This document shows, piece by piece, positions 49,315-58,074 of a stretch of 64,000 nt of DNA. Under the pieces are notes generated by a model. The model had not been told where the DNA came from. It saw only the letters and a program-made list of their open reading frames with translations, and did no database searches. Position 1 is the stretch's first letter; each line of letters opens with the position of its first letter. The DNA is from an uncultured Bacteroidales bacterium (GTDB lineage Bacteria; Bacteroidota; Bacteroidia; Bacteroidales; UBA932). The stretch is from positions 3,538-67,537 of the forward strand of contig CALVDL010000006.1 in the NCBI GenBank assembly GCA_944326305.1, given 5' to 3'. The translations under genes and the position numbers were made by a program.

Positions 49315-50718
49315 TTAACCTATAAAACTTAGAATATCGTCCACCGCACTCTTCGCGAAACTTTTCTGCTCCCCGCTGGAGAGGTTCTTCAGGTTGACAA
49401 TGCCTGCGGACACCTCGTCCGCACCCGTTATTGAAATGAACGGTATCGACTTCCTGTCAGCGTAGTCAAACTGCTTCTTGAGTTTCACCGTGTCAGGGTA
49501 GATCTCGCACGGCACCCCTGCCTCGCGCAACATCCTGGCCACCGGAAGGATATACTTCATTTCAGAGTCACCCATGTTGGCGAAAAGAACTCTCGTGGAC
49601 GATGTCACCTCCTTCGGGAACTTGTCAAGCCCTTTCAGCACGTCATATATCCTGTCCGCACCGAAAGATATACCCACACCGGACATGTCAGGAAGGCCGA
49701 AGATCCCGGTAAGGTTGTCATAGCGTCCTCCGCCGCAGATGCTTCCGATCTGGAAATCCTTGGCCTTGACCTCAAAGATGGCCCCGGTGTAGTAGTTCAG
49801 CCCCCTTGCCAGGGAAAGGTCTATCTCCACTTCCTGGGAGACGCCTGCAGTCTCGACCAGCCCTAAAAGCTCGTCCAGCTCGTCCAGTCCTTTAAGCCCG
49901 GTCTCCGAAACGATTCCTGAGGCGGACCTGCCTGACATAAGCTCCCGCATGGCGGCTATCTTCTCCCTGGTGGAGCCTTTCAGCATGAGCACAGGCTCGA
50001 TGACGGCTACAGCGGCATCCGTGAGTCCTTTCTCCTTCATCTCGGCCTCCACTGCCTCAAGGCCTATCTTGTCTATCTTGTCGATGGCGACAGTGATATC
50101 CACCACCTTGTCAGGGAAACCGCATATCTCGGCAAGCCCTGTGAGTACTTTCCTGTTGTTTATCTTGATGAGCACATCCACCCCGAAGAGGCTGAACACC
50201 CTGTCGGTAATCTGCACAAGCTCCAGCTCATTGACAAGCGATTTCGACCCTATCACATCCACATCGCACTGGTAGAACTCCCTGTAACGTCCCTTCTGCG
50301 GCCTGTCTGCCCTCCATACGGGCTGTATCTGGTATCTCTTGAACGGGAAAGAAATGTCATTCTGGTGCTGAACGACAAAACGCGCGAACGGCACCGTAAG
50401 GTCATACCTGAGGCCCTTCTCGCAGACCTTCAGTGAAAGGGCCTTGCTGTTGTACTCCCTCTCCCCGAGCTGATACTCGCTGAAGTCAATCCCGGAGAAG
50501 GCATCCCCGGAGTTGAGTATCCTGAACAGCAGCTTGTCGCCCTCATCTCCATACTTGCCTAAAAGCGTGCTGAGATTCTCCATCGACGGAGTTTCTATAG
50601 GAGCATAGCCATAGGTCTTGAATACAGACCGTATCGTATCGAAAATATAGTTGCGGGCTGCCATCTCGGCAGGTCCGAAATCCCGCGTCCCCTTGGGGAT
50701 AGAAGGTTTCTGTGCCAT
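49315..50718 (-). CDS. hisS: Histidine--tRNA ligase
   Basis: [53 protein letters not shown]. Confidence 0.98.
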
Positions 50719-50782
50719 TTTCTAAACAAGTTTCATTCTCTTGCGCCACACTGGCGAAAGCCGGTGCAAATGTAATAAAAAG

Positions 50783-51028: not shown

Positions 51029-51058
51029 AAAAAAAATGCCGGATATGCGGACTCCGGC
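51029..51058 (-). terminator. Terminator of the lipoprotein-rSAM-lipoprotein operon
   Basis: GCCGGA-GTCCGCATA-TCCGGC followed by a T run. Confidence 0.8.
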
Positions 51059-51085: not shown

Positions 51086-51553
51086 TCACCACTCGCGGAA
51101 CATCTGTATCAGTATTGGTTCCTCGCATATATAAAGACCTGAGAACCATTCATCTGCCAGATTGTCCGACCCCTCGACAAAAGTCAGCGGGACGGTATAA
51201 CGGGCATCATAATAATGGCCCCAGTTCAGCCCGTCATCCATATCCACATCCACAGCGGTGACAACCATGCTGGAAGACGGGGTGAACGTACCATATAGAG
51301 AGAATCTCCCGTCAGGCTGCACATCGGTATAGGTCATGCCCCAATACTGGTCGATGAAATATACCCTGACGCCGGAAAGAGGCTGCCCCAGATCGTCCAC
51401 CACTGTCCCTTCCACTTCAAAATCGGCATAGGGGAAGCCGTATGTCCCGTTGGGGCCGCTCCCGCCGCTGATTTCACAAGAGAGGAGCAGCGGCATGGCA
51501 ACCGCCGCCGCAATCCATGCAGACCTGAATGGCAGGGCTGCCATTATCTTCAT
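51086..51553 (-). CDS. Radical SAM-associated lipoprotein, paralog 2 (TIGR04134-like)
   Basis: Lipobox LLSC, then GTYGFPYADFEVEGTVVD. Start uncertain (51568, 51553 or 51544). Confidence 0.75.
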   Translation of the reverse strand: MKIMAALPFRSAWIAAAVAMPLLLSCEISGGSGPNGTYGFPYADFEVEGTVVDDLGQPLSGVRVYFIDQYWGMTYTDVQPDGRFSLYGTFTPSSSMVVTAVDVDMDDGLNWGHYYDARYTVPLTFVEGSDNLADEWFSGLYICEEPILIQMFREW

Positions 51554-51588
51554 ACAAAATCCTTTCATCATAGTCCCTGTACACCTGT

Positions 51589-52656
51589 TCAGATGATCCT
51601 GTCCATATGGCACAGCATGAGTTCCCCCGCGTCATTCCGCAGATGCATCCCGTTGCCCTCGCAGTAGCGGAACCATCTGCAGCTGCCGCACTTGCCCTTC
51701 TTCATCCATGACCTGTCCCTGTACGGGACAAACCTGTTCTCCCACACGTCTATGAAATCATCCTCATATATGCTCCCCTGATGGTAGTCGCTCCTGATGC
51801 TCGGACAGGCCGAGATGGAGCCGTCTGCAAGCACCGAAGCCACCGAGAGACCGGCCTGGCAGGTATAAAGGTGGTCCCTCACCTTGCCCTCGAACTCCCC
51901 GAGGAAGCCCTCGCACCCGTAGCTTGGTATTATCCGCCCCTCCTTCCTTGTCCTGGATATGAATTCCATAAGCCCCCTGAACCGCTCTCTGTCAAGCTGC
52001 AGGTCCGGGTCTGAAGCCGCCCTCCCGGCCGGGAAGACAGTGAAAAGTCTCCATTGCCGCAGCCCGAGAGAGATCAGGTAATCCCTGAACTCAGCCAGGG
52101 TCCCGTAGTTCCTGTTGTTCACACAAGTGACCACATCGAATTCCACGGAGCTCTCCGCGGCAAGTATCCTTACTGCTTCTTCCGCATGCCTGAAACTGCC
52201 GGGGACACCGCGCATCCAGTCGTGGTCCTGCATGAACCCGTCCAGGCTCACAGTAGCGGAATGGAGTCCGGCGCGAAGCAGGGATTCTATCTTGCCCGGT
52301 GTCATGAGCATGCCGTTGGAGACCAGTCCCCACGGGAACTCCATGCCGTATATCTCCCTGCCGCACTTTTCCAGGTCCTTGCGCATGAGAGGTTCCCCGC
52401 CGGTCAGGATGACCATGATATGGTGCGGGTCATACCGTTCCTTGATACGTGCAAGGACTTTGCGGAAATCCTCAAACGGCATGTCCGGCCCGACGGATGA
52501 TATATGGCAGTCACTGCCGCAGTGGCGGCAGTGCAGATTGCAGCGCAGGGTGCACTCCCAGAACAGCTGGCGCAGAGGATGTTTCTCCTGCTGCTCCTTT
52601 ATCAGCTGGCGGTGGAGCTCAAGTGCCAGACGCTGTTTAAGTGAAATACCTGTCAT
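51589..52656 (-). CDS. Radical SAM/SPASM protein (TIGR04133-like rSAM/lipoprotein system)
   Basis: WECTLRCNLHCRHC (CxxxCxxC), TGGEPL, SPASM cysteines CQAG..GSISACPS..CGSCRWFRYCEG..LC. Confidence 0.88.
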   Translation of the reverse strand: MTGISLKQRLALELHRQLIKEQQEKHPLRQLFWECTLRCNLHCRHCGSDCHISSVGPDMPFEDFRKVLARIKERYDPHHIMVILTGGEPLMRKDLEKCGREIYGMEFPWGLVSNGMLMTPGKIESLLRAGLHSATVSLDGFMQDHDWMRGVPGSFRHAEEAVRILAAESSVEFDVVTCVNNRNYGTLAEFRDYLISLGLRQWRLFTVFPAGRAASDPDLQLDRERFRGLMEFISRTRKEGRIIPSYGCEGFLGEFEGKVRDHLYTCQAGLSVASVLADGSISACPSIRSDYHQGSIYEDDFIDVWENRFVPYRDRSWMKKGKCGSCRWFRYCEGNGMHLRNDAGELMLCHMDRII

Positions 52657-52708
52657 CCGGAAGAAAGAACTTTAAGAAGCCGTTTGGACTTTTCGGTGAC
52701 GTCCAGGT

Positions 52709-53164
52709 CTACCAGTCAGAGCTGATATCACGTGTAACCGTAACCTCTACATCCCCGGCACTGAACATGCCGGAGTACCATCCTTCACCATCCGACACAT
52801 GCTCCAGAGAGACAGAGACGGTCACCGTCTGGAAAAGACCTCCGTTCTCCTCCTGGTCAGTGTCCTCCACTTTAACCAGGACCGACTCCGAAGGGAAGAA
52901 CGAGCCTGAAAGGGAAAAACGGCCCTCGGCATCGGTAGTCCCGGTCACGACCGGTTGCGGATTGCCGTTCTGCTCCATGGCAGACACTTTCAGTCCCTGA
53001 ACCGGCTGCGAAAGTTCGGCATCCACAACCTTTCCCTTGACTTCAAAGTCCGCATACGGTGATCCGTATTCCTCCCGCGCTATAAAAGGAGAATTGCAGC
53101 CTACGGCAGAGAACCCGAGAAGAGTAAGCAGGCATTTACAGATACTTGTGATAAAAGATTTCAT
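52709..53164 (-). CDS. Radical SAM-associated lipoprotein, paralog 1 (TIGR04134-like)
   Basis: MKSFITSICKCLLTLLGFSAVGC lipobox, then EEYGSPYADFEVKGKVVD..VKVEDTDQEENGG. Confidence 0.85.
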   Translation of the reverse strand: MKSFITSICKCLLTLLGFSAVGCNSPFIAREEYGSPYADFEVKGKVVDAELSQPVQGLKVSAMEQNGNPQPVVTGTTDAEGRFSLSGSFFPSESVLVKVEDTDQEENGGLFQTVTVSVSLEHVSDGEGWYSGMFSAGDVEVTVTRDISSDW

Positions 53165-53192
53165 AATCAATCATTTTGGCTAGACAGCCGGA

Positions 53193-53220
53193 AGATGCAA
53201 GAAAGGGAATGAACGTTGCA
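53193..53220 (-). promoter_or_regulatory. ECF-like promoter motif, copy 2 (rSAM/lipoprotein operon)
   Basis: TGCAACGTT-CATTCCCTTTCT-TGCATCT, 28 nt upstream of ATG 53164. Arms and spacing are identical to copy 1. Confidence 0.7.
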
Positions 53221-53225
53221 TCACA

Positions 53226-54611
53226 TCACAACCCTTTGATATACCTGTCAATGGCTGCAGCCGCCTTCCTTCCAGCCCCCATTGCAAGAATGACTGTGGC
53301 CGCACCGGTGACGGCGTCGCCCCCGGCAAATACCCCCGGGCGGGATGTTACCCCGTCCCCGTCCGCCACTATACAGCCTCTCCTGTCTGTCTCCAGTCCA
53401 TGTGTAGTCCTGGCTATCAGAGGGTTGGGAGAAGTTCCAAGGGCCATGATCACAGAATCCGCCTCTATCTCGAATTCTGACCCTGGAACAGGGACGGGCG
53501 AGCGTCTTCCGCTTCCGTCAGGTTCACCGAGCTCCATCCTTATGCACCTGATTCCGCGGACCCAGCCTTTTTCGTCACCGAGAATCTCCACGGGATTGGT
53601 AAGCATGGAGAATGTGATGCCCTCCTCCATTGCGTGGTGGACTTCCTCCCTGCGGGCCGGAAGCTCCTTCTCTGTCCTGCGGTACACTATCGTGGTCTCC
53701 GCGCCGAGCCTGAGTGCGGTGCGGGCGGCGTCCATGGCCACATTGCCACCGCCGACAACGACCACCCTGTGCCCCGTATATACCGGGGTCATATAGTCAT
53801 CGCGGTATGCTTTCATGAGGTTGTTCCTGGTGAGGAACTCGTTGGCGGAGAACACCCCGTTCAGATTCTCGCCGGGTATGCCCATGAAGCGCGGAAGGCC
53901 CGCACCGGAACCGACGAACACGGCGGAGAACCCCTCATTGTCCAGAAGGGAGTCTACCGTGACAGTCCGGCCGACGACCACATCCGTCTCTATCTTCACG
54001 CCCAGGGCCTTCACCGAACCTATCTCCGCAGCCACGACCTTCTCCTTGGGAAGCCTGAACTCGGGAATCCCGTATTCCAGGACTCCGCCTGCCTTGTGCA
54101 GGGCTTCGAACACAGTCACTTCATATCCCATCTTGGCCAGGTCGCTGGCACACGCCAGACCTGAAGGGCCGCTGCCCACAACCGCCACCTTGTATCCGTT
54201 TGACGGGGCTTTCACGGCACCCTGGCTGCCGTTGGCCATGTTCCAGTCAGCCACGAAGCGCTCCAGCTTCCCTATCGCCACAGGCTCCCCTTTCACCCCG
54301 AGGATGCAGCTGCCTTCGCACTGTGTCTCCTGAGGGCATACCCTCCCGCATACTGCAGGGAGGGACGAGTCCCTGGCTATCACGGCAGAGGCCCCGGCGA
54401 AATCACCCGCAGCCACATGCGCTATGAATTCAGGTATGCTTACATTCACAGGACAGGCTGAAACGCAGCGCGGATTCTTGCAATGCAGGCACCTGGACGC
54501 TTCCAGCAAAGCCTCCTTTTCATTGTATCCATAGCATACCTCATCGAAATTCGAGGCCCTTGTCACAGGGTCCTGCTCCCTTACCGGGACCCTGGGTATC
54601 CTGTTTGCCAT
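53226..54611 (-). CDS. nfnB: NfnB-like large subunit (GltD/GltA-homologous NADPH flavo-iron-sulfur protein)
   Basis: EASRCLHCKNPRCVSACP, CGRVCPQETQCE, GSGPSG, GVLEYGIPEFRLP, GGGNVAMDAAR and AGGDAVTGAATV motifs. No glutamate synthase large subunit nearby. Confidence 0.8.
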   Translation of the reverse strand: MANRIPRVPVREQDPVTRASNFDEVCYGYNEKEALLEASRCLHCKNPRCVSACPVNVSIPEFIAHVAAGDFAGASAVIARDSSLPAVCGRVCPQETQCEGSCILGVKGEPVAIGKLERFVADWNMANGSQGAVKAPSNGYKVAVVGSGPSGLACASDLAKMGYEVTVFEALHKAGGVLEYGIPEFRLPKEKVVAAEIGSVKALGVKIETDVVVGRTVTVDSLLDNEGFSAVFVGSGAGLPRFMGIPGENLNGVFSANEFLTRNNLMKAYRDDYMTPVYTGHRVVVVGGGNVAMDAARTALRLGAETTIVYRRTEKELPARREEVHHAMEEGITFSMLTNPVEILGDEKGWVRGIRCIRMELGEPDGSGRRSPVPVPGSEFEIEADSVIMALGTSPNPLIARTTHGLETDRRGCIVADGDGVTSRPGVFAGGDAVTGAATVILAMGAGRKAAAAIDRYIKGL

Positions 54612-55480
54612 TATCTTCCCCTCCCTATCTTACATTCATGTTCATATCTTTCTTCCGCATCATGCTCCTGGGTCCTGTACATCCCCTGCCGGCGCATTGC
54701 CTCGTCGAAATCCACCTCATATCCGTCAAATTCAGGACCTTCGACACAGGCGAACCTGGTCTTTCCCCCGACAGTCACCCTGCATGCCCCGCACATCCCG
54801 GTCCCGTCCACCATGAGAGTGTTCAGGCTCACCGTCACCGGTATCCCGAGCTTCTTCGCACTGAGCGAGGCAAATTTCATCATTATCATAGGCCCGATAG
54901 CCACCGCCCTTGTATAACTGTTGCCGTCTTCAAGCACAAGTTTCTCGAAAAGTCCGGTCACCATGCCGTGGAAGCCTTCAGAGCCGTCGTCTGTGCAGAT
55001 ATAAAGGTGGTCGCACACGGAGGCCATCTCGTCCTTGTAGATAAGCAGGCCGGAGTTCTTGGCCCCGATGATCACATCCACAGGCACGCCCATGCCATGC
55101 AGATACTTCACCTGCGGGTAGACAGGTGCGGTGCCGACGCCTCCCGCTATGAAGATGTACCTCTGGCCGGAAAGCTCCCCGCGGGTCATCCCGGTGAAAT
55201 CAGAAGGCATCCCGAGAGGCCCTACCACATCGCTGAATGAATCCCCTTCCCCGAAAGAGCATATCTCGGATGTGGAGGCACCTATTTTCTGCGTCACAAT
55301 GGTGACTGTACCCTGCTCCCTGTCATAGTCGCTGACAGTGAGCGGGATGCGTTCGCCGTGCTCATCCGGACGGATGATCAGGAACTGCCCCGGCAATGCC
55401 GACTGGGCAAGTCTTGGAGCCCGTACTTTCATCCGGCATATGGCCGGAGTAAGCATTTCCTTTGAAACTATCTCGAACAT
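54611..55480 (-). CDS. nfnA: NfnA-like small subunit (PyrK/SudB-like FAD/2Fe-2S protein)
   Basis: PGQFLII, ERIPLT, GGVGTAP, IGPMIMMK and MVDGTGMCGACRV..CVEGPEFD motifs. Its TAA overlaps the nfnB ATG. Confidence 0.82.
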   Translation of the reverse strand: MFEIVSKEMLTPAICRMKVRAPRLAQSALPGQFLIIRPDEHGERIPLTVSDYDREQGTVTIVTQKIGASTSEICSFGEGDSFSDVVGPLGMPSDFTGMTRGELSGQRYIFIAGGVGTAPVYPQVKYLHGMGVPVDVIIGAKNSGLLIYKDEMASVCDHLYICTDDGSEGFHGMVTGLFEKLVLEDGNSYTRAVAIGPMIMMKFASLSAKKLGIPVTVSLNTLMVDGTGMCGACRVTVGGKTRFACVEGPEFDGYEVDFDEAMRRQGMYRTQEHDAEERYEHECKIGRGR

Positions 55481-55499: not shown

Positions 55500-55856
55500 T
55501 TATGCTTGAGTTTCTTTCACGGCTTCATAGCCGAGATCCGCCAGGGCCTCGGCAAGCCTTGCCTCATCAGTCCTGGACGCATCATAGGTGATCTTCACTG
55601 TCTTGTCCTCAAGAGATATCTCGAGCCCCTTGACCCCTTTTTCGAACGAGATGTTCTCCCGGATCTTCTTCACACAGTTCCCGCAATGCATATTCACCTT
55701 GAATGTCACCTCCTTGAGCTCTTTCTTCGGTCGTGACTCCGAAACGGATGCGTACACGCTCCCATTTTGCTCGGCATTGTCCGCAGGCATACCCCACATG
55801 GAGACAGCACCGGCCGCCAATACGGCGCACATAATCAGTATCTTTTTCATTTCCAT
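55500..55856 (-). CDS. Secreted heavy-metal-associated (HMA) domain protein
   Basis: Signal peptide then VTFKVNMHCGNCVKKI (MxCxxC). Confidence 0.88.
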   Translation of the reverse strand: MEMKKILIMCAVLAAGAVSMWGMPADNAEQNGSVYASVSESRPKKELKEVTFKVNMHCGNCVKKIRENISFEKGVKGLEISLEDKTVKITYDASRTDEARLAEALADLGYEAVKETQA

Positions 55857-55870
55857 TGGATTGTTTCCTC

Positions 55871-58006
55871 CTATCTGTTTTTCTTCCACAGAGTGAACCG
55901 CACTCCGGCATAGAACTTCACGCCCATCAGAGGCCCCCATATTGCACTGGCATCGAACGAAGCCTGGTGAGCGTTCACAAACCCGTCGGCATCCTTTGCT
56001 CCCGCTATGGCGTATTTCTGTCTGAAATTGGTGAGGTTCTCCCCTCCAATATAGATGTCCACTCCCTTGAACCGCCTGGTCACCTGGGCATAAAGCATTG
56101 GATATACAGGGGTATGCCCGTCAGGATAGAGAAGATTGCCGTCTTTGTCAGTAAGGGTCTCCATGAAACTGTACACCCTGGACGGGCCGTTGACGGACGC
56201 GGTGAAGTCGAATATCCACTTGTCCAGCCTGGTGGCATACTGGAGATTCAGCACGCCCTTGTATTTGCCGGTCATAGGCTTGTCTGCCAGCCCTCTGTCC
56301 TTCAGTTCTATCTTTGCCTCCGTATAACGGAATGTGGCCGCAACAGTGAACCTTTCAAAAGGCTCCACATTGAAGTCTATCTGGTAATTGTCCGTATATG
56401 ACCTGCGTCCGTCAAGGGCATAGAAGTCTATGACATTCTGCTCGTGTTCATAGTCCACGACCATCTGCTGGCCGAACATGGTGTGGAAATAGTCGAAACT
56501 TATATAGGTATTGTCCGAGGCCCCGAACGGAAGGTAATACGTAATGTTTCCCCCGTATGTCCAGGAGTCCTCCAGAAGATGGTCACCGTAGATACCCTTG
56601 AACGCCTTTCCGGTTGAGAACACCCCTATATTGTCCACAAGAGGCATCGAATACCTGAGGCCGCGGCCCCCGTTCAGCCTCAAGGTCACCTGCTCTGCAG
56701 GGGAATACTTTATTGTAGCCCTCGGAGAAAACTTGAATCCGTCCCGGTTGTACCACTCACCGCGCGCACCTGCTATTGCAGTGAATTTCTCGCCGCAGCT
56801 GAATGTATATTCTCCGAATATGCCGGCGTTGAAAAGGTCAGTGGTCCCGCTTTTCTCCGAATGGGCGTATGCAGGGTCCGGGTAGAATACCGTCCTGCTG
56901 AAATCCTCGTCAAGCCTGTCATACATCGAGCCCAGTCCCACAGTGAGCTTGTGCGAATCACTTATGTCATACTGGTACAGGAGATTGAAGAATCCGGAAT
57001 GCTGACGCCCCATATATTCGGTCGACCCGAACCACGAATCCATATCGTACAAGGTATAATCCGCCACCACAGCGATGTTCTGTGAATTGTCAGAGGCAAG
57101 CGGTATGCCTACCTTGACATATCCGTTCAACGAGCGGTTCCGTATGTCGGAGCCCCAGGGACTGGATATATTGTCCAGGCGGTATTCTGAACGGTCGTAT
57201 CCCGGCTGACCTCCCTGCCTGGAATCCTGCAGGGCCTTTATCCCGAAACGGACCTGCACACCGCTGTCAGCATAATAGAGCCACCTGTTGGCAAGGTTGA
57301 ACTGCAGCATTTCCGGTTCATCCAGATATCCGTCATGGTTGTGGTCGAAACTCTTGATGTTGCCCGAGGCGTGGGCAAGGACAACAGTACTCCAACTGCG
57401 GCCCATCTGGAGCGAGGACGCGAGGTTGAAGTCCATCTTGGTGTCGCTCATCACGGAAGCGTTCAGGAAAAGAGGCTTCTCGTCCGTAGGCTTGCGGTGC
57501 TCCATGTTTATCTGCCCGGTCATGGACTCCACGCCGTTGATGACGGAGGAGGCTCCTTTGGCTATCTGGATGCTCTCGAGCCACTGACCCGGGACATATG
57601 CCAGCCCGAACGGGGCAGCGAGACCGCGCATCACAGGACGGTTCTCGTCAAGCATCTGCGTATACACGCCCGAAAGGCCCAGAAGACGGATCTGCCGTGC
57701 GCCTGTGACCGCGTCAGAATACCCTACAGTCACGCTTGCCGAATTCTCGAAGCTTTCCGCAAGGTTGCAGCATGCCATCTTGTGCAGCCCGGCGGATGAT
57801 ATGACCTCGGTCCTTATCGGAGAGCCTTTCTTCAGGAAATTCCCGTCCTGGCGATATACAGACACCGCAGCATCAAGACTGTCCTGCCGTTCCCCGTAAA
57901 GCCCCGAAGTATCCGCCACAGCTGCCTGGCCGCGCATATCGACACACAGTCCCAAAAAGCATCCAACAACAGGGAATATATAACGTATATATTTTATTAT
58001 CTTCAT
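55871..58006 (-). CDS. TonB-dependent receptor (non-SusC type, usually HMA-associated)
   Basis: Plug KMACCNLAESFENSASV, IQIAKGASSVING..TGQIN, C-terminal WGPLMGVKFYAGVRF. ATG at 58006 preferred. Confidence 0.88.
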   Translation of the reverse strand: MKIIKYIRYIFPVVGCFLGLCVDMRGQAAVADTSGLYGERQDSLDAAVSVYRQDGNFLKKGSPIRTEVISSAGLHKMACCNLAESFENSASVTVGYSDAVTGARQIRLLGLSGVYTQMLDENRPVMRGLAAPFGLAYVPGQWLESIQIAKGASSVINGVESMTGQINMEHRKPTDEKPLFLNASVMSDTKMDFNLASSLQMGRSWSTVVLAHASGNIKSFDHNHDGYLDEPEMLQFNLANRWLYYADSGVQVRFGIKALQDSRQGGQPGYDRSEYRLDNISSPWGSDIRNRSLNGYVKVGIPLASDNSQNIAVVADYTLYDMDSWFGSTEYMGRQHSGFFNLLYQYDISDSHKLTVGLGSMYDRLDEDFSRTVFYPDPAYAHSEKSGTTDLFNAGIFGEYTFSCGEKFTAIAGARGEWYNRDGFKFSPRATIKYSPAEQVTLRLNGGRGLRYSMPLVDNIGVFSTGKAFKGIYGDHLLEDSWTYGGNITYYLPFGASDNTYISFDYFHTMFGQQMVVDYEHEQNVIDFYALDGRRSYTDNYQIDFNVEPFERFTVAATFRYTEAKIELKDRGLADKPMTGKYKGVLNLQYATRLDKWIFDFTASVNGPSRVYSFMETLTDKDGNLLYPDGHTPVYPMLYAQVTRRFKGVDIYIGGENLTNFRQKYAIAGAKDADGFVNAHQASFDASAIWGPLMGVKFYAGVRFTLWKKNR

Positions 58007-58027
58007 ATTAACCTGATGCAAAATGTA

Positions 58028-58074
58028 CAAAAGTAATAAATTTTACGGAGATACGATTTTTTTTCGTAACTTTG
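58028..58074. promoter_or_regulatory. Divergent -7 elements for the TBDR (minus) and sppA (plus)
   Basis: TACTTTTG on minus at 58028-58035 and TAACTTTG on plus at 58067-58074. Confidence 0.55.

Follow-up and report, generated by a model that had tools for sequence, protein, structure and literature searches.

A TIGR04133 radical SAM/SPASM enzyme and two Tyr-Gly lipoproteins as a candidate protein-maturation system in a gut Bacteroidales bacterium

We analyzed a 64,000-nt stretch of DNA (the window) from a gut Bacteroidales bacterium, Candidatus Cryptobacteroides, in which the gene for a radical S-adenosylmethionine (SAM)/SPASM enzyme lies between the genes for two putative lipoproteins, here called A and B. 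The three open reading frames (ORFs) that a preliminary description of this DNA had placed here are present on the minus strand (Table 1), and they run head to tail in the order lipoprotein A, enzyme, lipoprotein B. The lipoprotein A gene ends 52 nt before the enzyme gene, which in turn is separated from the start of lipoprotein B by 17-35 nt. The closest public record is a metagenome-assembled genome of Candidatus Cryptobacteroides faecavium, with 98% identity in the enzyme and an identical lipoprotein B.

Table 1. Positions in the window of the genes, motifs and flanking features at the locus
Feature	Position	Strand	Details or basis
Lipoprotein A	52709..53164	-	151 aa from ATG at 53164; alternative TTG at 53170
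Motif E32-Y33-G34-S35-P36 of lipoprotein A, proposed modification site	53057..53071	-	Sequence; alignment of 59 homologs
Lipoprotein A peptide segment at the proposed Tyr-Gly site, EEYGSPYADFEVK			Has a counterpart in lipoprotein B
TIGR04133 radical SAM/SPASM enzyme	51589..52656	-	355 aa
C39-x3-C43-x2-C46, radical SAM [4Fe-4S] cluster motif, then invariant C50	52519..52542	-	Sequence; invariant in sets of 15 and 35 family members
SPASM region	51610..51915	-	Invariant C248, C266, G279-x4-C284, C323-x2-C326-x5-C332, C349; alignments, TIGR04085, PF13186
Lipoprotein B	51086..51553	-	155 aa from ATG at 51553; alternative ATG at 51571
Motif T37-Y38-G39-F40-P41 of lipoprotein B, second x-Tyr-Gly-x-Pro site	51431..51445	-	Sequence
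Terminator-like hairpin GCCGGA(9 nt)UCCGGC, then AUUUUUUUU	51029..51058	-	RNA fold; ~30 nt past the lipoprotein B stop
Spacer, nfnB-like gene to lipoprotein A	53165..53225	-	61 nt; TAnnTTTG scan, sigma-70 scan, sequence
nfnA/nfnB-like pair	53226-55480	-	PRK06222-type FAD/NAD-binding subunit and TIGR01316 NADPH-dependent glutamate-synthase-like subunit

The enzyme is a full member of TIGR04133 (rSAM_w_lipo), with a score of 558 bits against a cut-off of 425 and with positions 1-349 of 350 aligned; a search of the genome with this hidden Markov model (HMM) found it (557.6 bits) in one copy. It matches the Pfam families PF04055 (Radical_SAM) and PF13186 (SPASM), and its SPASM part scores 37.7 bits on TIGR04085 (cut-off 27). 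Two of the HMM searches that the preliminary description had proposed thus give scores over the cut-off, and the expected CX3CX2C motif and SPASM domain are present. The family-invariant Cys residues of TIGR04133 are those of Table 1 together with C178. In the AlphaFold2 model of the enzyme (predicted local distance difference test, pLDDT, 91.1), an N-terminal helix of only 25 residues precedes the radical SAM core, and we found no recognition element (RRE) domain of the kind known from peptides that are made on ribosomes and altered after translation (RiPPs) in the 355-aa protein. Its structural neighbors (BlsE, SuiB, SkfB, anSME, PqqE and ChlB) are mostly peptide- or protein-modifying SPASM/twitch enzymes. 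The locus is an ordinary member of the TIGR04133/TIGR04134 pair, which is already catalogued in NCBIfam/TIGRFAMs as hypothetical equivalogs based on Bacteroidales gene neighborhood, and it has both families in same-strand adjacency in a member of the Bacteroidales; what is less usual is the presence, downstream of the enzyme, of another, divergent lipoprotein gene for a putative second substrate.

Lipoprotein A scores 97.5 bits on TIGR04134 (lipo_with_rSAM; cut-off 39.8) and lipoprotein B falls slightly below that cut-off (39.0 bits; 37.9 in the genome search); they are the only TIGR04134-like genes in the genome. Both carry a Pfam CarboxypepD_reg-like domain, and both are predicted to be lipidated, based on a lipobox read from the sequence: the signal peptide of A has an LLGF motif and runs LLGFSAVG-C23 (lipobox Cys23), and that of B runs MPLLLS-C26 (lipobox Cys26). 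Their placement at the cell surface in the preliminary description is to be taken as a supposition. In a BLASTP comparison, A and B share 37% identity over 108 residues (E = 5e-19) in an alignment that begins exactly at Tyr-Gly, and in the segment YG.PYADFEV.G.VVD 13 of 16 residues are identical, compared to roughly 29% elsewhere (counted by eye from the BLASTP alignment). The two lipoproteins are paralogs, as the preliminary description had it, the peptides quoted there (EEYGSPYADFEVKGKVVD and GTYGFPYADFEVEGTVVD) are exact, and the Tyr does lie 10 (A) and 12 (B) residues after the lipobox Cys. Lipoprotein B can be aligned with the TIGR04134-type family in an alignment of 59 lipoproteins (alignment A2), and in the lipoprotein tree its branch has a length of 3.5 substitutions per site with the motif segment kept. 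By these sequence comparisons, B is a fast-evolving, divergent paralog of A.

In the AlphaFold2 model of lipoprotein A (pLDDT 88.7), the signal-peptide helix is followed by a flexible stretch and then by a beta-sandwich, strand 1 of which starts at residue 37; Tyr33-Gly34-Ser35-Pro36 would therefore lie in a flexible tether directly before the fold. The fold matches only a generic transthyretin/CnaB-like sandwich, and we discarded it as a clue to function. We also noted two features common to the beta-sandwich domains in alignment A2: an acidic D-x-D-G-x-x-N-G-x-F loop (VEDTDQEENGG in A), which by eye resembles a calcium-binding loop, and a C-terminal G-x-G-x-W-Y-x-G motif.

TIGR04133 is found over its cut-off in 64 of 301 sampled genomes of the same order, and in a phylum-wide sample of 301 genomes only in the genome studied here and in three others, all of the same order. 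A species-representative genome collection holds at least 597 stretches that encode TIGR04133, the best 80 of which all come from gut or rumen Bacteroidales (including Phocaeicola, Parabacteroides, Prevotella, Alistipes, Muribaculaceae and Paludibacteraceae). Bacteroides thetaiotaomicron has both TIGR04133 and TIGR04134 over the cut-offs. We assembled a comparative set of 161 TIGR04133 loci; L-numbers below denote individual loci of the comparison, relatives outside the family included. All but ~10 of these loci have a same-strand neighbor with Tyr-Gly, mostly Tyr-Gly-x-Pro, and several of the exceptions lie at contig ends. Clustering of the neighboring ORFs yielded two conserved families only, namely the enzyme, in 161 loci, and the lipoprotein, in 121; other apparent clusters were shadow ORFs that overlap the enzyme gene and were set aside. 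There is no third conserved partner (protease, exporter or RRE/recognition protein) across the 161 loci, consistent with the earlier remark that neither a protease nor an exporter stands beside the pair. Downstream copies of the lipoprotein gene occur in a minority of loci, and the position of the gene switched at least four times in the lipoprotein tree. Five loci with distant relatives of the enzyme (L083, L084 and L167-L169; 150-240 bits on TIGR04133 or against the enzyme itself) are without Tyr-Gly neighbors. Thus, the association with Tyr-Gly is specific to TIGR04133 proper.

The motif x-Tyr-Gly-x-Pro is found beside TIGR04133 on six or more kinds of scaffold, and between several of these no similarity is evident: the TIGR04134 beta-sandwich lipoproteins; AAC-YGxP proteins, in which the Tyr directly follows the lipobox Cys; tiny basic lipopeptides (KYGGPP..Y) encoded in arrays of two to five; coiled-coil lipoproteins (C[VL]YG[ST]PE); signal-peptidase-I-type AQ-YG proteins; and two peptides without a signal sequence. 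Only x-Y-G-x-P is common to several kinds of these neighbor genes, and the residue before Tyr-Gly is E, K, M, C, V, A or L across loci (EYG in A and TYG in B). The carriers with a signal-peptidase-I-like AQ-YG sequence, which are 237-257 aa long and have no lipobox, are downstream genes (L037, 3786-4559; L048, 3462-4175), and the signal-less carriers are small and acidic (L051, 2539-2751; L052, 2143-2424; with IYGPMP, LLYGPPP and IYGSPAF).

To guard against circularity in assessing conservation of the motif, we built an HMM from the beta-sandwich domain alone, with the motif region removed. This domain-only HMM found 137 distinct proteins, three of them shortened by contig ends. The Tyr is present in 134 of the 134 full-length homologs and is thus invariant; Tyr-Gly, whose invariance the preliminary description had proposed to check, is present in 129, and Tyr-Gly-x-Pro is present in 123 of the 129 that have Tyr-Gly before the domain. 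Similarly, in the alignment of 59 homologs (mean column identity 27%), Y33 and G34 do not vary, and at least 90% of the sequences keep P36. Pro occupies +3 in 84% of first sites, and it was not a selection criterion. We found that YG.P occurs 6.4 times per 1000 aa in the carrier proteins and 0.16 times in the long ORFs of the genome, a 40-fold enrichment, and that small upstream ORFs without a lipoprotein-domain match carry it in 29 of 141 cases, compared to 5 of 723 opposite-strand control ORFs. The presence of the motif on unlike scaffolds, the Tyr found in every full-length homolog and the 40-fold enrichment support the earlier proposal that the lipoproteins themselves are modified, and we consider it very probable, on this comparative evidence, that A and B are substrates of the enzyme, targeted at Tyr-Gly.

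In the mechanism we envisage, the TIGR04133 enzyme would recognize newly made pre-lipoproteins A and B in the cytoplasm, probably by the signal peptide together with the linear motif x-Tyr-Gly-x-Pro(-x3-Tyr/Phe), and would modify the Tyr-Gly site by means of a 5'-deoxyadenosyl radical. The proteins would then leave the cytoplasm unfolded by way of Sec, receive their lipid at the lipobox Cys and fold into the transthyretin-like beta-sandwich, and the modified residue would finally sit in the short tether between the lipid anchor and the domain. We infer both that modification precedes export and that the signal peptide has a leader-like role. LG[FILVM] near the lipobox Cys is present in 56% of the signal peptides of the substrates compared to 2.9% of the lipoprotein-like ORFs of the genome, a hint that the enzyme also reads the signal peptide; lipoprotein A has this sequence in its signal peptide and lipoprotein B does not.

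The likeliest reaction at this site would be one in which a tyramine equivalent (C8H9NO, -135.07 Da) is cut out in the manner of the spliceases. Known spliceases are radical SAM/SPASM enzymes that act at X-Tyr-Gly with a variable X (PMC11414181, PMC11002830), the validated PlpXY splice tag, PIRP-LYGLP-I, has the x-Y-G-x-P shape (PMC10533398 Table 1), and binary spliceases have no RRE partner (PMC11414181). We tentatively favor a two-component protein-maturation system, and these three correspondences make tyramine excision our best single guess for its chemistry.

The likeness to the tyramine spliceases (PlpX/PlpY/PlpA, PcpXY and the binary RhaX/RcsX/RasX) extends further, in that those systems can also have several sites or substrate genes per enzyme and act on proteins as well as on peptides, and the PlpA2 core itself contains LYGLP. 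The differences concern the substrates and the genes that accompany them. The putative substrates here have Sec/lipoprotein signal peptides rather than Nif11/NHLP leaders, there is no RRE-like Y protein, leader protease or exporter, and the product would stay lipid-anchored on a folded domain. We found no splicease structure in the PDB, and a literature search linking spliceases with Bacteroidetes or with lipoproteins yielded no paper.

Several observations weigh against splicing, starting with the relationships of the enzyme. On TIGR04103, which we take to be the PlpX family IPR026482 (the paper on PlpX names its class only as IPR026482), the enzyme scores 89.8 bits against a cut-off of 725 and is thus outside that family; the best E-value of TIGR04103 among 15 diverse TIGR04133 members is 9e-40. 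Next to TIGR04133, the enzyme matches TIGR04053, AhbD and NirJ best, for the most part in the N-terminal core, and for the 15 members TIGR04053, NirJ2, TIGR04103 and AhbD are practically tied. We built a tree of TIGR04133 with TIGR04103/TIGR03913-like Bacteroidota radical SAM enzymes, which serve only as proxies for bona fide PlpX, one AhbD-like sequence and an anSME outgroup. TIGR04133 is monophyletic (99/99) and forms a deep clade of its own, which is joined, at weak support (86/81), to the AhbD-like sequence, itself on a long branch; the approximately unbiased (AU) test did not reject a clade of TIGR04133 with the TIGR04103 side (p-AU 0.26). Seen from the other direction, and in favor of splicing, three groups of uncharacterized Bacteroidota radical SAM enzymes have TIGR04103, TIGR03913 and then TIGR04133 as their top families, and one near-TIGR03913 enzyme likewise ranks TIGR04133 directly behind TIGR04103 and TIGR03913. 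The splicease-like chemistry suggested in the preliminary description is a possibility: the motif has the shape of LYGLP, and the enzyme is outside the PlpX family. A grouping with cofactor-biosynthesis enzymes, which had been named there as contrary evidence, is neither borne out nor excluded by the tree, with its weak AhbD pairing and the result of the AU test.

The same AhbD affinity bears on whether the lipoproteins are substrates at all. If they were not, the enzyme might produce or alter a cofactor or other small molecule (a tetrapyrrole, for example, as AhbD and NirJ do), with YG.P as a sorting or structural signal and with the lipoprotein either carrying or binding the product or being an unrelated, co-regulated partner. 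AhbD and NirJ are the top secondary HMM matches, the AhbD/NirJ/TIGR04053 tetrapyrrole-type families as a group giving the highest such scores (103-130 bits), and the weak pairing in the tree points the same way. Moreover, the sorting signals of Bacteroidota lipoproteins sit beside the lipobox, and so does this motif. However, these scores fall well short of the cut-offs (395-515 for the group), with most alignments confined to the N-terminal core, as is the case for AhbD and NirJ (120.8 and 102.8 bits; cut-offs 500-515), and across the loci there is neither a haem/sirohaem pathway context nor any other linked cofactor-pathway gene, whereas the conserved motif in the neighbors speaks for a protein substrate. 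Carriers of the motif include tiny peptides without a fold and neighbors without a signal sequence; it is also found in repeats and up to ~90 residues from the lipobox. Since a search of the genome gave no convincing case of a further YG.P lipoprotein elsewhere, the motif is no general sorting signal. With motif carriers that are tiny, repeated or signal-less, we regard a role of the lipoproteins other than as substrates as very unlikely.

A further point against splicing is that the SPASM part alone is best matched by MftC, the mycofactocin maturase that acts on Tyr. The same substrates might thus undergo another radical change that leaves the backbone uncleaved, such as epimerization of the Tyr, beta-hydroxylation or dehydrogenation, or an MftC-like oxidation of the Tyr. 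An epimerase, EpeE, is among the structural neighbors, and phylogeny is in general a poor predictor of the chemistry of radical SAM/SPASM enzymes. On the other hand, MftC requires a C-terminal Tyr and the Tyr here is internal, the motif favors these reactions no more than it favors splicing, and in the literature we found, a strict Gly after the Tyr is described only for spliceases. We consider a change of this kind unlikely.

The auxiliary cluster and the surroundings of the Tyr supply further points against splicing. Throughout TIGR04133, the canonical CX2CX5CX3C of the SPASM region is without its fourth Cys and has the near-invariant G336 instead, and H338, five residues past the position of the missing Cys, is invariant; Gly in place of the fourth Cys, together with H338, suggests an open or non-Cys ligand site. 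In addition, an aromatic residue is found at +5 to +8 in 78% of the sites in long substrates and 64% of those in short ones, and of 83 first sites, 27 have a Cys at -1 and 10 have one at -2. These features would fit a cross-link at the same site, either a bond (C-C or C-O; -2 Da) that joins the ring or beta-carbon of the Tyr to Pro or to the +5 to +8 aromatic residue, or a thioether from a nearby Cys, as made by SuiB, PqqE, DarE and the sacti- and ranthipeptide synthases. The cross-linking enzymes SuiB, SkfB and PqqE are among the structural neighbors, and the missing fourth Cys might leave an open iron site, which in CteB reportedly binds a substrate Cys. But neither the Cys nor the downstream aromatic residue is universal (several peptides have no aromatic residue, and both sites in the window are without a Cys within 9 residues), and only Tyr-Gly is invariant. 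Furthermore, because Gly may stand at +2 (as in KYGGPP), a three-residue cyclophane onto the +2 beta-carbon is ruled out, and in the sandwich proteins the model places the +7 aromatic residue at the beginning of strand 1, such that a structural role could explain its conservation there. A cross-link, too, seems improbable to us.

The last point that counts against splicing is the occurrence of Tyr-Ala in five of the 134 full-length domain-only homologs. Tyr-Ala homologs are found at L135, L142, L160 and L077 (for example, LYASPHADF) and may be decayed copies or tolerated variants; at least three of these four loci have another neighbor with Tyr-Gly-x-Pro.

A precedent for the proposed logic, modification of a short linear motif in a whole protein in the cytoplasm before export, is provided by anSME (TIGR03942), a radical SAM/SPASM enzyme of the same size and likewise without an RRE, to which the enzyme is structurally similar (TM 0.69/0.69). 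The two are not the same system, however: the target motif of anSME, C/S-x-P/A-x-R, is absent from A and B, the model NF010321 scores only 18.9 bits, against 441, on the C-terminal (SPASM) 123 residues, and no anSME model is among the 25 best families for the whole enzyme. A separate anSME gene is present in the genome, on contig C15.

With tyramine excision as the favored reaction, a broader proposal can be formulated, which we put forward as a doubtful possibility: TIGR04133 enzymes may be leaderless, signal-peptide-guided spliceases that install, before Sec export, a class of membrane-tethered ketoamides in gut and rumen Bacteroidales. If so, lipid-anchored proteins and mini-lipopeptides would carry a backbone alpha-keto-beta-amino acid beside the membrane anchor, and the products would be tethered electrophilic warheads, for example protease inhibitors, with a specificity set by the residue before the Tyr.

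The limits of the operon are in part less distinct than the preliminary description had them. Its terminator was found 3' of lipoprotein B, as a weak, terminator-like hairpin in the RNA fold with a weak stem followed by U8, which the consensus terminator scan did not call because the loop exceeds 8 nt. In contrast, the claim that the operon has a promoter motif of its own was not confirmed: a scan of the minus strand from 58035 to 50774 gave no Bacteroidetes -7 box (TAnnTTTG), and the single match of the sigma-70 scan upstream of lipoprotein A is weak and lies inside the nfnB-like gene. As the 61-nt spacer holds no promoter box, transcription by read-through from the nfnAB-like genes, the pair that ends at this spacer, is possible. 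We rejected the nfnAB-like genes as a functional partner, since such a pair lies next to the system in only one other locus of 161 (L092, directly before the radical SAM gene); the adjacency thus reflects local synteny without a functional link.

Some further observations concern the flanks and related loci. The hisS gene next downstream (49315-50718, minus strand) has a canonical TACATTTG box at 50767-50774, ~50 nt before its start, of a kind that the operon described here is without. On the other side, a gene for a small exported protein (55500-55940, minus strand) with a heavy-metal-associated-like motif, MHCGNC...KTVKITYD (by eye), adjoins a TonB-dependent receptor gene (55871-58030); a similar protein is encoded directly 3' of the radical SAM gene in L045 (1367-1717), which is probably a coincidence. 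Finally, in another order of the same class (L170, 3012-3185; L171, 3002-3178), a 58-aa GDL-motif peptide (MGIMMPYGAAVRE...QGDL...) is encoded upstream of a radical SAM/SPASM enzyme near TIGR03913 (531 bits) and TIGR04103 (424 bits). This peptide has an N-terminal Pro-Tyr-Gly, and Tyr-Gly is perhaps a wider theme of this enzyme neighborhood.

We found no literature on the chemistry of TIGR04133, with prior coverage in the splicease survey of Scott et al. (Chem 2022) possible, and TIGR04134 is named once in the literature found, in an unrelated review of the type IX secretion system (T9SS). The comparative data turn a bare gene-neighborhood family into a precise proposal, with one enzyme, one five-residue motif and a set of proposed substrates, and the family concerned is present in about one-fifth of the sampled Bacteroidales genomes, including those of human-gut Bacteroides, Phocaeicola, Parabacteroides, Prevotella and Alistipes. 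If the reaction is splicing, this would be, as far as we found, the first such backbone edit on exported, lipid-anchored proteins; a secretion signal would act in the role of a RiPP leader, and protein engineers would gain a single-component enzyme that is compact and comes with a short tag. If the reaction is another one, envelope proteins of dominant gut bacteria would still have a post-translational modification that is new.

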